Assembly: GCA_963805625.1 (NCBI GenBank)
Contig: CAWDVE010000019.1
Coordinates: forward strand, 320,001 to 384,000
Direction: 5' to 3'
Length of the DNA: 64,000 bases
DNA from: an uncultured Candidatus Rokubacteria bacterium
GTDB taxonomy: Bacteria > Methylomirabilota > Methylomirabilia > Rokubacteriales > DASRDR01
Made by a program: the position numbers and the translations under genes. The notes under the pieces are model-generated. The model saw only the letters and a program-made list of their open reading frames with translations, did not search any database and was not told where the DNA came from. Shown here in pieces: positions 1 to 64,000 of this stretch (within the stretch, counting starts at the first letter, position 1; every line of letters begins with the position of its first letter).

Positions 1-359
1 GCCTCGCGTGCCCGGCCCGCCTCGCCGGCTTCGCGGAACCCCGCAGAGATCACCACCGCGCCGCGCACGCCCTTGGTGACACATTCCTTCAGGGCCGGCA
101 GGACGGCGGGCGCCGGCACTGCGATCACTGCGAGGTCAACCGGGCCGTCGATCGCGAGGAGCGACGCGGTCGCGGGCAGCCCCTGGACGACGTCCCCCCG
201 GGGATTCACGGGCCAGATCCGCCCCTCGAACCCCGCCGCCCGCAGGTTCGCGACGACGCTCCCGCCGACCTTCGTCGGGTCGCGCGAGGCTCCCACGATG
301 GCGATGCTGCGCGGGTCGAAGAAGGCCGCGAGGTCCCCAGGAGCTGGGGCGCCACTCAT
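1..359 (-). CDS. Acetate--CoA ligase (ADP-forming)/Pat-family protein, N-terminal CoA-binding part (runs off window start)
   Basis: Not in ORF track. Manual translation from ATG at 359: MSGAPAPGDLAAFFDPRSIAIVGASRDPTKVGGSVVANL...IWPVNP...VDLAVIAVPA...GAVVISAGFRE, the typical CoA-binding domain of this family. Confidence 0.85.
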   Translation of the reverse strand, partial: MSGAPAPGDLAAFFDPRSIAIVGASRDPTKVGGSVVANLRAAGFEGRIWPVNPRGDVVQGLPATASLLAIDGPVDLAVIAVPAPAVLPALKECVTKGVRGAVVISAGFREAGEAGRARE

Positions 360-384
360 TGGCGTCGCGGTACCGATCGGTCGC

Positions 385-2046
385 TCACCAAATCCGGAAG
401 CCAGGCGCGTTGAGCGGGGTGGTGGCGATCAGGTGGGCGAGGGACGGGCCGTAGGCGATGAGGATCAGCACGGCCGCGAGCGCGAGCCACGGCCGCCAGC
501 GGTCGAGAATGGCCGGCGCGTGGTCCGGCCCGGAGAGCGCCTCCGCGAAGCGCGGCATCTCGGGGGCCGGGCCGCGCGACCACACGAGTGTGCCCACGAT
601 GTTGAGGAAGTAGAGAAGGGCACTCACGAACAGCCCAGTGCCTGCGATCCCTACCCACATGAGATCCCAGTGCCACTCGGGGCGGACGTACGGAGCGGCA
701 CTCAGCATCGTGCGCCGCGGCGCACCCAGGAGGCCAAGGTTGTGCTGGGCGTGCGAGAAGACCGTCATCGCGACGAACCAGAGCCAGGCTTGGACGAGCG
801 CCAGGCGACGGCTCCAGAGGGCGCGGCCCCGAAGGGCCGGAACCAGCCAGTAAGTGATGCCCATGAACGACAGGGTGACGGCGGTGCCCACCGTCAGGTG
901 AAGATGGCCCGGGATCCAGGCCGTATTGTGGACGACCAGATTCAGGTTGTACGAGGCGTTGATGAGGCCACCCACCCCGCCGAAGACGAAGAGGAGCATC
1001 GCCAGAACCTGCGCGGCGACAGACGGGTCGCCCCAGGGCAGCTTCCCGAACCAGGCCACCCAGCCACGGCCCCCGCGTGTGCGAGCTCCGCTCTCGAGTG
1101 AAGCGACGACGTTGAAGAACGTGAGGAGGCTCGGGAAGAAGACCGCGAACGTGAGGAAGGCATGGACCAGCTTCCACAGGCGATGGATACCTGGATCGGC
1201 GTACTGGTGGTGGAACCCCAGCGGGGTGGAGAGGACCAGGAACAGGATGAACGACGTGCGGGCGAGCGGATCGCTGAAGAGCTTGCCGCCTGCCTGGCGG
1301 GGCACGAGGGTATACCAGGAGATGTAGGCCGGCAGCAGCCAGAAGTAGACGATCGGATGTCCCGTGAACCAGAAGAGCGCACGCGCCAGGAGCGGGTCCG
1401 TACCGCTGACGAGCCCCAGCGACCACGGGATGAGCATGAACAGCATCTCGCTGGCGATTCCCACCGACGCGATCGACCACATGGCAAACGTCACCATCCC
1501 CATGAAGGCCGCCAGGGGGGTGCGTTGCCCGGGATTCCGCGCACGCCAGGCGCGGAGCGTCAGCGCCAGGTTCAGGGTGACCAGCCACGTGCCGACGACG
1601 ACCAAGGTCAGGCCGACGTAGAAGGCCCAGTGTGCCTTGAGGGGCGGGTAGAAGGTGAACATTACGCTGGCGGCGTTGCCCACGAGCGGAATGGCCGCGA
1701 GCACGAGCCCACCCGTCATCAGCCAGAACGTGCGCCAGGCGAGCGGTCGGCTCCAGAGCGGGCGCTCGAGGGCCTTCGCGACCAGGAGCGGCACGAATCC
1801 GCAGATGAAGAACGTAGTGAAGACGAGCACGTTGAGGACGCCGTGCAGCGTGAGGCCATGGTAGTACGATCGGATCACCGGCGAGAGGGCCGGATAGAGA
1901 TTCACCCCCGCGTGCTCGAGGGCTTGGAGAAGGCCCACCGTCACTCCCCCGAAGAGCGCCACGAGGGCCACCGTCAGGTTGGCGCCAGCCGCCTGACGCT
2001 CAGCGGAGAGGTCGAGGACTGCCTCGGGCGACGCGGCGGGAGTCAT
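385..2046 (-). CDS. cbaA: Cytochrome c oxidase subunit I, ba3/B-family
   Basis: Polytopic membrane protein with [28 protein letters not shown] and [11 protein letters not shown] motifs; ATG at 2046 overlaps the cbaB stop. Confidence 0.93.
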
Positions 2047-2531
2047 GGCCGGGCCTCCACGATCACCTTGCCCCACATCGTGTGGTGCGCAATCCCGCAA
2101 TACTCGTGGCAGACGAACGGGTATTCTCCGGGACGGTCGAAGCGGGCCGTCACGCGCGCGATCTGGCCCGGGAGCAGCATCACGTTGACGTTGTGCCGGT
2201 CGACATGGAGACCGTGGACGACGTCCCGGCTCGTGGCGACGAACGTTACCGTCGAGCCCGCCGGCACGCGGACCTCGTTCGGCGTGAAGCTCCAGATGCC
2301 GGCAACCATCCGGACCTCGAAGCGATCGGGGCCGGTCTGGACCACGCCGGGTTGGTCGAACGGTGGCGTTTGCGCGACCTTCGTGACATCAATGCGCCCG
2401 GCGTCGCTTGGGAGGTGGATTCCGACGCCGAAGGCAGTGACAGCCAGCGCCACCAGCATCCCGACCGGGATGGCGATGCTGGGGAGGATCCATGCCAGCT
2501 CGTACAGGTAGACGGTCGTGCCCTGCTTCAT
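2043..2531 (-). CDS. cbaB: Cytochrome c oxidase subunit II (CuA), ba3-type
   Basis: One TM helix plus DVVHG and [12 protein letters not shown]uA motif; RBS GAGGAG before ATG 2531. Confidence 0.93.
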
Positions 2532-2539
2532 CTCGCTCC

Positions 2540-61904: not shown

Positions 61905-61966
61905 CGCTGACGTGCCGCCCCAGCTTGGGGTGCGGGTGCCCCAGGGGCTGGTCCGTGAGTGCCCCG
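61905..61966. promoter_or_regulatory. Triple enhancer boxes
   Basis: GCCCCA half-site (61917), TGGGGT-GCGGGT-GCCCCA (61926), TGGTCC-GTGAGT-GCCCCG (61949). Confidence 0.72.
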
Positions 61967-62004
61967 GCCGACGCGGATGCCGGCTGATCGCGGCCCGTCG
62001 CGCC

Positions 62005-63435
62005 TCAGTCGGCGCCGCGTACCTCGAGCGCTTCGATCTCGGCTTTGAGCGACCGTTGGAGGGCAAGGAGGCGATCGCTGTAGGCCACCGGGTACGCGGC
62101 GGGGTCTCTGAGCCGCCGCACCGCGTCAGGGAGCGCGCGGAGCTGAGCCGCACAGTAGTCGCGGATCGCCGTCAGGGCGGGAAGCGGCGTCGTGACTGCT
62201 CCCGAGGTCATCACCGTGTCGAGAAGAGGCTCGGCGCCGGCGGGCGGGTCTTCCTCCCGTAGGGCCAGCCGATCGCTCGCGAAGCGGCCGTCGGCCCCGC
62301 GTGTGCGGTAGACTTGCTTCTCGCCGGTCCACGTTTCCTTCCCCGTGCTGAACTTGAGCACGTTCCGGCCGGCGTAGCGCACGAGCTTGTAGGCCATGTC
62401 CAAATAGGGGGCGTCGGCGGAGACATCCATGCGCGTCCCGACCCCGAAGGCGTCGATGGGCGCCCCGGCGGTGAGGAGCTCGTCGATGACGTGCTCGTCG
62501 AGGCCGCCGCTGACGAAGATACGCACGTAGCCGAGCCCGGCCCCATCGAGGATTCGTCGCACCTCCTGGCTGAGGGTCAGAATGTCGCCGCTGTCCAGTC
62601 GCACGCCGGCCAGCCGGTGCCCCCGAGCCTCCATCTCCTTTCCCACCTGGACCGCCTTGTGGGCGCCGGTGACGGTGTCGTACGTGTCGATGAGAAGGGT
62701 CGTGTTCTCCGGAAAGGCGCGCGCGAACGCGCGGAACGCGTCGATCTCGCGGGGGAAGGCCACCACGTACGAGTGCGCCATCGTCCCGGTGGCCGGGATA
62801 CCGTAGGAGCGCTCCGCGAGCACGTTGCTGCTCATGGTGGCGCCCGCCAGGAATGTGCACCGCGCGGCCTTCATGCCGGCATCGACTCCGGGAGTGCGCC
62901 GGAGGCCGAACTCGACAATCGCGCGCCCGCGTCCCGCGATGACGGAGCGGGCCGCCTTGGTGGTGAGGACCGTCTGGAAGTGACAGGCGTTCATGACCGC
63001 CGTCTCGACGAGCTGGGCTTCGATGATGGGCGCGGTGATCTCCAGGAGCGGCTCATCGGGAAAGACGACCGTCCCTTCGGGCACGGCTCGCACGTCGCCC
63101 GTGAACCGGAGGTCGGCGAGGAAGCCGAGGAAGCGATCGTCGAACCGGCGCGTCCCTGCGAGGTGCGCGAGCGCGTCGTCGGAGAAGCGGAAGCTCTGGA
63201 GGTAGCCCAGCACATCCTCGAGCCCCGTGGCGATGAGGAACGACCGATTCTTCGGGAGCTTCCGCACGAAGAGACTGAACGTGGCGGGGTCGTGCATCCC
63301 TTCCCGGAAATACGACGCGGCCATGGTGAGCTCGTAGAGATCGGTGAAGAGGGCGGCGTCTCGGGTGGTGACCGGTCCCGAGACAAACGCTCCCCGGAGC
63401 GATGGGGCGATTGGCGATTCCAGCGACGCGCTCAT
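62005..63435 (-). CDS. pncB: Nicotinate phosphoribosyltransferase
   Basis: TDLYELTM, EFGLRR, GTMAHS, LIDTYD, VRLDSGD, SGGLDE; ATGA coupling. Confidence 0.94.
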   Translation of the reverse strand: MSASLESPIAPSLRGAFVSGPVTTRDAALFTDLYELTMAASYFREGMHDPATFSLFVRKLPKNRSFLIATGLEDVLGYLQSFRFSDDALAHLAGTRRFDDRFLGFLADLRFTGDVRAVPEGTVVFPDEPLLEITAPIIEAQLVETAVMNACHFQTVLTTKAARSVIAGRGRAIVEFGLRRTPGVDAGMKAARCTFLAGATMSSNVLAERSYGIPATGTMAHSYVVAFPREIDAFRAFARAFPENTTLLIDTYDTVTGAHKAVQVGKEMEARGHRLAGVRLDSGDILTLSQEVRRILDGAGLGYVRIFVSGGLDEHVIDELLTAGAPIDAFGVGTRMDVSADAPYLDMAYKLVRYAGRNVLKFSTGKETWTGEKQVYRTRGADGRFASDRLALREEDPPAGAEPLLDTVMTSGAVTTPLPALTAIRDYCAAQLRALPDAVRRLRDPAAYPVAYSDRLLALQRSLKAEIEALEVRGAD

Positions 63436-63908
63436 GGAGCCCGGAGCGCCCATCGGTACGGAGGCGACAGGACTCCCTCTTCGAGGACCTCGGCGAACAC
63501 TCGGATGACGTCGGCCTCGGTGAGGATCCCGACGAGCCGCTCGTTCTTCACGACCGGGAGCGCGCCGATCTTCCGGTGGTGCAGGAGCCGGGCCGCGTCG
63601 CGGATCTCGGTCTCCGGCCGAACCGTGAACACCGTCCACGTCATGATGTCCCGGACGGTGAGACCCTCCAGCGCGTCGGCCAGCCTCCCGCCGAGTCGTT
63701 CCTGGAGTCGTGGGTCGAGAATGACCTGCCGGAGGTCCCGGTCGGTCACGATGCCGACAAGGCGTTGGCTGGCGTCCACGACGGGCAGGTGACGGATCCT
63801 CGCGGCTCTCATCAACCGCACGGCGTCGGTGACCTTCGCCGTCGGACGGACCGTTGAGGGGGCGGGGGTCATCCGATCCCCGACGCGGATGGACTCGGGC
63901 CAGTTCAT
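63432..63908 (-). CDS. CBS-domain pair protein; start uncertain
   Basis: IRHLPVVD..GIVTDRDLR; IGALPVV..GILTEADV. Confidence 0.88.
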   Translation of the reverse strand: MNWPESIRVGDRMTPAPSTVRPTAKVTDAVRLMRAARIRHLPVVDASQRLVGIVTDRDLRQVILDPRLQERLGGRLADALEGLTVRDIMTWTVFTVRPETEIRDAARLLHHRKIGALPVVKNERLVGILTEADVIRVFAEVLEEGVLSPPYRWALRAP

Positions 63909-64000
63909 AGGCTCGAACTCCTGGGCCTCGCGCCGGGCATGCCTCGGTTTCCGTGTTCGGATGTTGCGCCTGATCGATCGCTTTGGATGCCGCATCGCCG

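Follow-up and report, generated by a model that had tools for sequence, protein, structure and literature searches.

Rokubacteria are abundant, uncultured soil bacteria. In a rokubacterial genome (G000; 7.27 Mb in 28 contigs, about 69% GC, 99.9% complete), we analyzed a stretch of 64,000 nucleotides, called the window here (contig C19:320001-384000), which is the core of a cluster of about 100 kb extending about 10 kb to the left and 25 kb to the right beyond it. The window is dense in sigma-54 promoter sequences, most of which share one upstream palindrome. On balance, its sequence favours a mechanism in which the NtrC-type activator encoded at 10471, acting on phased palindromes and phosphorylated by the likely heme kinase encoded at 16936 as oxygen or redox falls, would drive the cluster. 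The proteins concerned are as follows.

10471..11853, + strand: NtrC-type sigma-54 activator with REC, AAA+ with GAFTGA and C-terminal helix-turn-helix domains (ESELFGHERGAFTGA)
16936..18528, - strand: soluble PAS-GAF-HisKA-HATPase kinase, with no sigma-54 site in front
8429..8812, + strand: stand-alone receiver REC1, helix 1 identical to that of the activator at 9 of 12 residues
18860..19252, + strand: stand-alone receiver REC2, with its own sigma-54 promoter (start codon approximate)

The window was scanned with TGGCAY-N5-TTGCW, which we take to be the sigma-54 consensus, with GG and GC fixed, and 100 dinucleotide shuffles served as controls. At no more than one mismatch, 15 matches were found against 0.81 +/- 0.77 in the shuffles (maximum 3), and perfect matches numbered 7 against 0.01; at two mismatches the excess fades (21 against 13.0 +/- 3.1). 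Fourteen of the 15 matches are strong sites, each on the coding strand for the next gene, and they include every one of the strong -24/-12 elements listed in the original prediction, while the fifteenth (42670, + strand) is intragenic and antisense. Thirteen of the 15 are intergenic, 26-136 nt ahead of a called start. Site 2685 was put by the gene caller inside the small oxidase subunit gene, and would be intergenic only if, as we read the sequence, this subunit begins at GTG 2650 behind a Shine-Dalgarno sequence. The window also stands out within the genome, in which it ranks first of 103 full 64-kb tiles with 13 promoter-like sites (next 9, 7 and 7; 42 tiles have none). Three weaker sites had been proposed as well. 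By a sigma-54 matrix built from 121 promoter-like sites that lie outside the cluster (cut-off 8 bits), site 24804 is supported (12.3 bits, with a palindrome of 18.6 bits), site 38806 is plausible as a promoter (9.9 bits, palindrome 8.9 bits), and site 34683 was rejected as under the cut-off.

When the 14 upstream regions were analysed by dyad counting and Gibbs sampling, the palindrome TGGGGC-N6-GCCCCA emerged. At no more than two mismatches it accompanies 12 of the 14 window promoters, in agreement with the claim that most of them share it, and the remaining two (2685 and 38477) carry three mismatches. At the same threshold it was found at 4 of 8 sites in the flanks, 1 of 22 in a sigma-54 cluster on C17/C26 and 11 of 99 in the remaining genome; among generic upstream windows, 90 of 2813 contain it. 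All nine perfect copies in the genome are intergenic, tandem copies lie 19-20 bp apart, and two divergent promoter pairs each have one copy in common (8307 and 48516). Because the motif came from these same window promoters, it was tested in relatives. In stretches from eight genomes outside the genus, 34 of 64 sigma-54 sites fit a spacer of 6 bp, compared with 2-10 for spacers of 3-5 or 7-9 bp. The distances of 49 palindromes in stretches from outside the genus are periodic at 10.45 bp (R 0.72, against a maximum of 0.46 in 2000 random draws). Within the order, 50 of 120 genomes contain the exact palindrome-plus-promoter pattern; a reversed control matched once, and beyond the order the pattern is scarce (2 of 45 genomes in a sample of the rest of the phylum). 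With the IHF consensus that we assumed, an IHF-like box starts 29-30 nt before the -24 box at 32 of 102 palindrome-bearing sites and at 2 of 54 other sites.

The GAFTGA-bearing NtrC-family protein at 10471 is as first described, and no other DNA-binding regulator was found in the window, in which a DksA/TraR zinc-finger protein is encoded at 38090. The genome encodes 39 activator-like proteins; therefore proximity alone cannot assign the activator. Across the 120 genomes of the order, the activator orthologue is present once each in 62 and kinase-core orthologues in 63, with both proteins in 53 and the kinase directly upstream of the activator in 28. Among the 50 pattern-positive genomes, 47 have an orthologue of the activator or the kinase (an unpublished genome, G055, was left out of these counts; with it, 62, 50 and 63 become 63, 51 and 64 of 121). 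Gene order is kept in two genomes of the genus and shuffled in the rest of the regions from 11 relatives, including those of the other large family, and in the shuffled ones the USP, CBS, Hsp20, oxidase, pyruvate dehydrogenase and hibernation genes retain the promoter architecture. Supported by co-occurrence, adjacency, spacing and phasing in relatives, the palindrome is very probably the binding site of the 10471 activator, and the proposal of one activator for the whole island can be upheld for most of its promoters, which co-occurrence, adjacency and phasing connect through one enhancer. Since the activator gene is the last of the operon from the 8388 promoter, the protein is also predicted to activate its own gene.

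The closest named matches of the activator come from Rokuibacteriota and Methylomirabilota bins (78-79%). A contig in a Gemmatimonadota-labelled bin (L001), possibly misbinned or transferred, encodes an activator of 91% identity and shares the gene order and the palindrome. An activator from Binataceae (L004, genome G170) falls within the rokubacterial clade and is faced by a kinase whose PAS is of the same His/Met kind; in the order of that genome the promoter pattern was found in 1 of 61 genomes.

The soluble PAS-GAF kinase at 16936 was likewise present as predicted. A sigma-70-like site before it (18683-18655) is at chance level (1 found against 0.7 in shuffles). By sequence and by predicted fold (pLDDT 88), the best PDB matches of its PAS domain are FG214, FixL and DosP. 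Its residues H58, H61 and M74, which recur without exception in the homologues (9 of 9), align with H156, H159 and M172 of FG214. According to the available part of the FG214 report, H156 is the proximal and H175 the distal heme ligand, and M172 is an alternative ligand in the reduced crystal (bioRxiv 10.64898/2026.03.15.711900). Two of these three ligands (His, Met) are kept in the kinase PAS. The core of the kinase family is conserved, and its sensors comprise PAS-GAF, tandem PAS, and a membrane domain with a PAS that is not of the heme type; the N-terminal membrane domain of the anchored kinases had no Pfam match (L146, L148, L095-L110). For helix 1 of REC1, the next-best rival among 85 receivers scored shares 5 of 12 residues, and REC2 equals the activator at 8 of 12 (counted by eye). 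This likeness to helix 1 of the activator, together with the palindrome-bearing promoters, suggests that REC1 and REC2 are phosphate sinks.

The promoters and genes of the window are listed below, with gene models taken from a rough gene caller.

2685..2817, - strand: sigma-54 site 2685-2700, with a weak palindrome at 2800-2817 (9.8 bits, 3 mismatches), ahead of the operon for a ba3-type (B-family) cytochrome c oxidase
385..2650, - strand: small subunit, subunit II and subunit I of this oxidase
5504..5635, - strand: sigma-54 site 5504-5519, tandem palindromes 5598-5615 and 5618-5635
3019..5453, - strand: USP, CBS, CBS, formate/nitrite channel
8218..8403: divergent sigma-54 sites 8218-8233 (-) and 8388-8403 (+), perfect palindrome 8307-8324, weaker palindrome 8288-8305
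6026..8159, - strand: CBS protein, cytochrome c, USP, frameshifted USP (6248-6692), small basic open reading frame
8832..10397, + strand: protein with AAA_33 kinase domain, presumably Rv2004c-like by its architecture
16224..16330, - strand: sigma-54 site 16224-16239, perfect palindrome 16313-16330
11998..16165, - strand: Hsp20, Balon-like baeRF10 ribosome hibernation factor, frameshifted P-loop protein, MBL-fold hydrolase
18740..18834, + strand: palindrome 18740-18757 and sigma-54 site 18819-18834, before REC2
24804..24916, - strand: variant sigma-54 site 24804-24819 (TTGCAC, not TGGCAC), near-perfect palindrome 24899-24916
19259..24756, - strand: CBS, glycogen phosphorylase C-terminal piece, PolX-PHP, FAD-enzyme fragment, NAD-dependent ligase
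28249..28333, - strand: sigma-54 site 28249-28264, palindrome 28316-28333
25170..28221, - strand: USP, PEP synthase
30627..30753, - strand: sigma-54 site 30627-30642, perfect palindrome 30736-30753; they precede LigD-N, PolX-N and an unknown gene (28505-30491)
38477..38594, - strand: sigma-54 site 38477-38492, poor palindrome 38577-38594 (1.2 bits)
30759..38431, - strand: DksA/TraR-like protein, GroEL, USP, biotin ligase, USP, CBS, epimerase, Kbl; membership in the regulon uncertain
38806..39699, + strand: weak sigma-54 site 38806-38821, DUF3175 gene (38940-39254), CBS gene
43052..43144, - strand: sigma-54 site 43052-43067, palindrome 43127-43144
39762..42982, - strand: HPF-like S30AE hibernation protein; acyl-CoA ligase/carrier/acyltransferase fusion
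48438..48631: divergent sigma-54 sites 48438-48453 (-) and 48616-48631 (+), shared palindrome 48516-48533
43362..48375, - strand: tandem USP, DUF6335, type II P-type ATPase running into an AIRS-fold domain (probably a frameshift)
48700..53977, + strand: nucleotidyltransferase, BON protein, PfkB, CBS, isoaspartate methyltransferase/erythromycin-esterase-like fusion
56200..56303, - strand: sigma-54 site 56200-56215, tandem palindromes 56267-56284 and 56286-56303
54252-56185, - strand: archease and RtcB, behind the 56200 site
61848..61943, - strand: sigma-54 site 61848-61863, palindrome 61926-61943
56524-61800, - strand: acetate-CoA ligase, pyruvate dehydrogenase E1a/E1b/E2 and carrier protein, behind the 61848 site
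62005..63908, - strand: CBS, nicotinate phosphoribosyltransferase, with a sigma-54 site and palindrome just outside the window (64067)

The best PDB matches of the window oxidase are ba3 oxidase subunit I (E about 1e-150), ba3 oxidases being high-affinity oxidases. The baeRF10 factor matches Balon MSMEG_1130 in PDB (E 3.6e-7), and the Rv2629-family model was below its cut-off. In the operon at 19259..24756, PolX-PHP, the FAD-enzyme fragment and the NAD-dependent ligase vary among relatives, and neither LigA nor PolX-PHP turned up in the stretches from the two closest ones; repair, which had been counted as part of the programme, is therefore not core. Two similar basic open reading frames of 67 amino acids (6026-6229 and 35790-35993), with no Pfam match, each stand behind a USP gene and are conserved in relatives. 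Frameshifted or partial genes, reflecting assembly errors or decay, are the USP at 6248-6692, the P-loop protein at 13095-14406, the P-type ATPase running into the AIRS-fold domain at 43362-47078, and pieces of an FAD enzyme, a phosphorylase and a SAM synthetase at 21340-21528, 23312-24148 and 34289-34585.

The regulon had been described as self-contained, which it is not, because rpoN (one Sigma54_DBD match) and the HU/IHF-family genes are located on contig C10, palindrome-bearing promoter candidates lie elsewhere in the genome (16 of 248 promoter-like sites outside the cluster have a palindrome of at least 10 bits), and the cluster itself overruns the window. In the left flank, a perfect palindrome precedes four genes for a DMSO-reductase type II molybdoenzyme (C19:306831-313145), whose 1154-aa alpha subunit is below all family cut-offs, and NrfAH has a sigma-54 site in front without the palindrome. 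Five of the outside palindrome-bearing operons were annotated, encoding PFOR with a CBS and a radical SAM gene; cytochromes with Rieske and cytochrome b proteins; a porin with an amino-acid decarboxylase and a permease; an RND efflux system; and an ABC transporter. The PFOR and Rieske/cytochrome b operons favour low oxygen, and the other three say little.

Some 80 kb to the right of the window (C19:462447 and 463759), CBS and tandem USP genes are accompanied by tandem palindromes and variant sigma-54 sites. A second dense sigma-54 cluster (C17, about 596000-690000; 16 promoter-like sites in two tiles) has its own activator at C17:645595, lacks the TGGGGC palindrome, is partly duplicated on C26 and consists mostly of genes for small or secreted proteins.

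A mobile island was considered and rejected: no tRNA gene was found in the window or the 44-kb flank (no integrase search was run), and the GC content of the window equals that of its contig (0.69 and 0.70). Across the order, the gene order of the cluster is reshuffled but kept. Given the absence of tRNA genes, the contig-like GC content and the order-wide retention, we read it as a long-standing functional cluster. Sequencing runs containing this stretch are mostly recorded as soil or sediment metagenomes. In four soil RNA runs (shares 0.06-0.11), short contigs cover hsp20, baeRF10, CBS and cytochrome c genes; they were not counted as expression evidence because they may be DNA or come from relatives and give no starts or levels.

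In established sigma-54 biology, activator dimers on upstream palindromes oligomerise and loop to RNA polymerase, and ATP is used to open the promoter. The mechanism we propose starts from what was observed: the sequences of promoters and palindromes, the distances between them, and the fact that these are conserved across the order along with the activator and kinase. His58 of the PAS domain would bind the heme, and Met74 would be a second ligand that can switch; without the distal Arg of FixL, the domain may read redox state or a gas. The kinase would then phosphorylate the receiver of the activator. Following the established scheme, activator dimers would occupy a single palindrome or a pair, with centres some 60-110 bp ahead of the -24 box, assemble into oligomers, reach RNA polymerase through a DNA loop (often with the help of an IHF-like bend) and drive opening with ATP. 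The output would be a survival response like that of DosR in Mycobacterium tuberculosis or the lxa locus of Burkholderia cenocepacia (USPs, CBS proteins, Hsp20, the Balon-like and HPF-like factors, RtcB/archease and PfkB), combined with low-oxygen energy metabolism (the ba3 oxidase, the flank molybdoenzyme, PFOR and the Rieske/cytochrome b operon). The activator would raise its own level, and the two co-induced receivers would drain phosphate and limit the response. Because the targets resemble the DosR and lxa genes and include the ba3 oxidase, low oxygen or redox is the likely trigger; the low-oxygen part of the original prediction thus stays probable in view of the heme-type PAS, the ba3 oxidase and the DosR/lxa-like genes.

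Several observations weigh against this account. In the kinase PAS, Gly stands at the position of FG214 H175 and Leu at that of FixL Arg220 (R220 is the distal Arg of BjFixL), so that heme binding via His/Met is likely and oxygen binding less certain. Most of the adjacent pairs inspected have a kinase with a membrane domain and another kind of PAS, in which the His/Met motif is missing; as the sensor varies across the order, the input need not be heme or oxygen. Three of the 50 pattern-positive genomes lack both proteins, and the exact pattern is missing in 23 of the 62 activator genomes, many of them fragmented bins. The relatives are separate DNA but were scanned with the window-derived motif, and since kin genomes are not independent, the co-occurrence statistics are overstated. 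The promoter of the GroEL operon (38477) has no good palindrome, and the IHF-like box is at the conserved offset in only 1 of 15 window promoters. By an operon rule that is generous (same strand, gaps of at most 350 nt), 59 of 62 listed window genes stand behind a sigma-54 site and 49 of 62 behind one flagged as palindrome-bearing, and several window genes are frameshifted or fragments.

Some of these observations fit another trigger acting through the same activator, enhancer and promoters, namely general energy or growth-arrest stress perceived by interchangeable sensors, with the heme PAS as one input. We regard this as less likely. In its favour, kinases with a conserved core carry differing sensors, the PAS lacks the distal Arg, and USP, CBS, Hsp20, HPF and RtcB are established as general stress genes too. 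However, palindrome promoters head the ba3 oxidase, the DMSO-reductase-family enzyme, PFOR and the Rieske/cytochrome b operon. The three characterised regulons with this gene set are, in the available parts of their accounts, also hypoxia-induced (PMC11841059, PMC3721108, PMC5309233).

It is improbable that the promoters are real but served by several activators, or that the palindrome is bound by a protein encoded elsewhere while the local activator runs only its neighbours. The 39 activator-like proteins leave room for such a division, as do the 23 activator genomes without the exact pattern and a palindrome score below 6 bits at 38477 and seven promoter-like flank sites. However, the pattern tracks this activator and kinase in 47 of 50 genomes, the motif is missing from the C17/C26 cluster (1 of 22), which has an activator of its own, a different activator clade goes with a variant spaced by 5 bp (9/51 against 1/51), and the phasing is as expected for an enhancer-binding protein. 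It is very improbable that the motifs are chance matches, or hairpin-type repeats of GC-rich DNA without any part in regulation, even though the palindrome is GC-rich in a genome of 69% GC and the sigma-54 consensus is near background at two mismatches. A chance motif was rejected on the excess over shuffles (15 against 0.8), the strand and position bias, the reversed-pattern control (1 match in 121 genomes), and the fixed spacer and 10.45-bp phasing in relatives.

The original prediction knew of no described regulon with this wiring, but the NmpR regulon of Myxococcus xanthus precedes it (PMC11841059), and lxa is a known low-oxygen locus of roughly 50 genes (PMC3721108); the published accounts are compared here on their available parts. 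The literature within reach held no account of this system in Rokubacteria, and PMC12316311 mentions neither Rokubacteria nor Methylomirabilota. At lxa, about 50 low-oxygen genes are clustered with 17 intergenic motif sites, and more sites lie elsewhere (PMC3721108). The gene types resemble those of the window (six USPs, alpha-crystallin, a PfkB-type kinase and a cation ATPase), but the motif TGA-N6-TCA is FNR/Anr-like, an Anr/Fnr-type regulator is its suggested reader, and sigma-54 control is absent from the available part of the account (PMC3721108). Motif discovery in the window, where no direct scan for TGA-N6-TCA was made, returned TGGGGC-N6-GCCCCA, and Crp-family helix-turn-helix matches lie outside the cluster.

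DosR/DevR shares with the window the USP, alpha-crystallin, PfkB and RtcB families, as well as ribosome hibernation factors (RafH, Rv2629) and nicotinamide recycling (Rv0573c) (PMC5309233). The match of the gene sets is at the family level. Further counterparts, we presume, are CBS (Rv2626c), archease (Rv2630), Rv2004c, Rv2030c and CtpF. DosR itself is a LuxR-family regulator that takes its input from heme kinases with GAF-bound heme and is not known to involve sigma-54; no LuxR-family regulator with GAF-heme kinases was found in the window, the part of the genome searched for one. DosR genes are in nine blocks, whereas those of the window are clustered. Among structures, the proximal His of FG214, FixL and EcDosP (PDB 10JX, 1DP6 and 9BGV) and the Met of FG214 are kept in the window PAS, which has neither the distal Arg of FixL nor the distal His175 of FG214. 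FG214 is a one-component transcription factor (bioRxiv 10.64898/2026.03.15.711900) and FixL signals to FixJ, whereas the window has a kinase and an NtrC-type activator.

The NmpR regulon is sigma-54-dependent and hypoxia-induced, with USP, CBS and cbb3 targets behind 7 promoters (23 genes; PMC11841059). NmpRSTU resembles the window system in its NtrC-like activator, its sigma-54 promoters with tandem enhancer palindromes, a heme-dependent kinase (here a likely heme kinase), an activator within its own regulon, and USP, CBS, high-affinity oxidase and P-type ATPase targets (PMC11841059). In contrast, the NmpR box is GCGCA-N5-TGCGC and not TGGGGC-N6-GCCCCA, signalling runs through the protoglobin kinase NmpU and a hybrid-kinase phosphorelay instead of one PAS-GAF kinase, the oxidase is cbb3 and not ba3, and 7 promoters compare with about 15 in the window alone (PMC11841059). 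The window has no exact copy of the NmpR box, and protoglobin (PF11563) had no match in G000, although it is present in 3 of 4 other genomes searched. In a quick tree of 46 rows, the rokubacterial activator clade has a support of 100 and excludes the NmpR-like protein of Archangium, picked by gene context as a stand-in for M. xanthus NmpR; deeper branching is unresolved. Membership in the NmpR system was rejected on the different box, the lack of protoglobin in the genome and the separate activator clade.

Another separate clade (support 100), from Myxococcota, deltaproteobacterial and Spirochaetota bins, stands mostly among USP, CBS and Hsp20 genes (loci L010, L013, L029, L037, L045, L053, L061, L068, L072 and L073), and a protoglobin gene is nearby at two of its loci. 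The sigma-54 sites among which it lies carry a related box, TGnGGC-N5-GCCnCA, which is the 5-bp-spaced variant mentioned above.

If the switch works as proposed, an uncultured soil lineage would have a complete candidate set of sensor, activator, binding site, promoter geometry and targets, and a DosR-type gene set would be seen under sigma-54 at full scale. If low oxygen is the trigger, palindrome-marked genes could report hypoxia or dormancy in soil metatranscriptomes. We tentatively raise the further possibility that Rokubacteria run a DosR-scale dormancy programme of at least 50 genes via a single sigma-54 master activator and a His/Met heme redox kinase with swappable sensor heads, damped by co-induced phosphate sinks, and that the same gene set came independently under the control of three or more sigma-54 activator lineages (NmpR, the rokubacterial clade with its 6-bp box and the Myxococcota/Spirochaetota clade with its 5-bp box), besides DosR and FNR; the dormancy gene set would then be a portable module under exchangeable masters. 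The sigma-54 mechanism itself is textbook knowledge, and sigma-54 control of a smaller hypoxia regulon is already known from NmpR. Judged by its sequence, the window system is a real and well-supported regulon that would work like that of NmpR and differs from it in box, sensor and activator clade.

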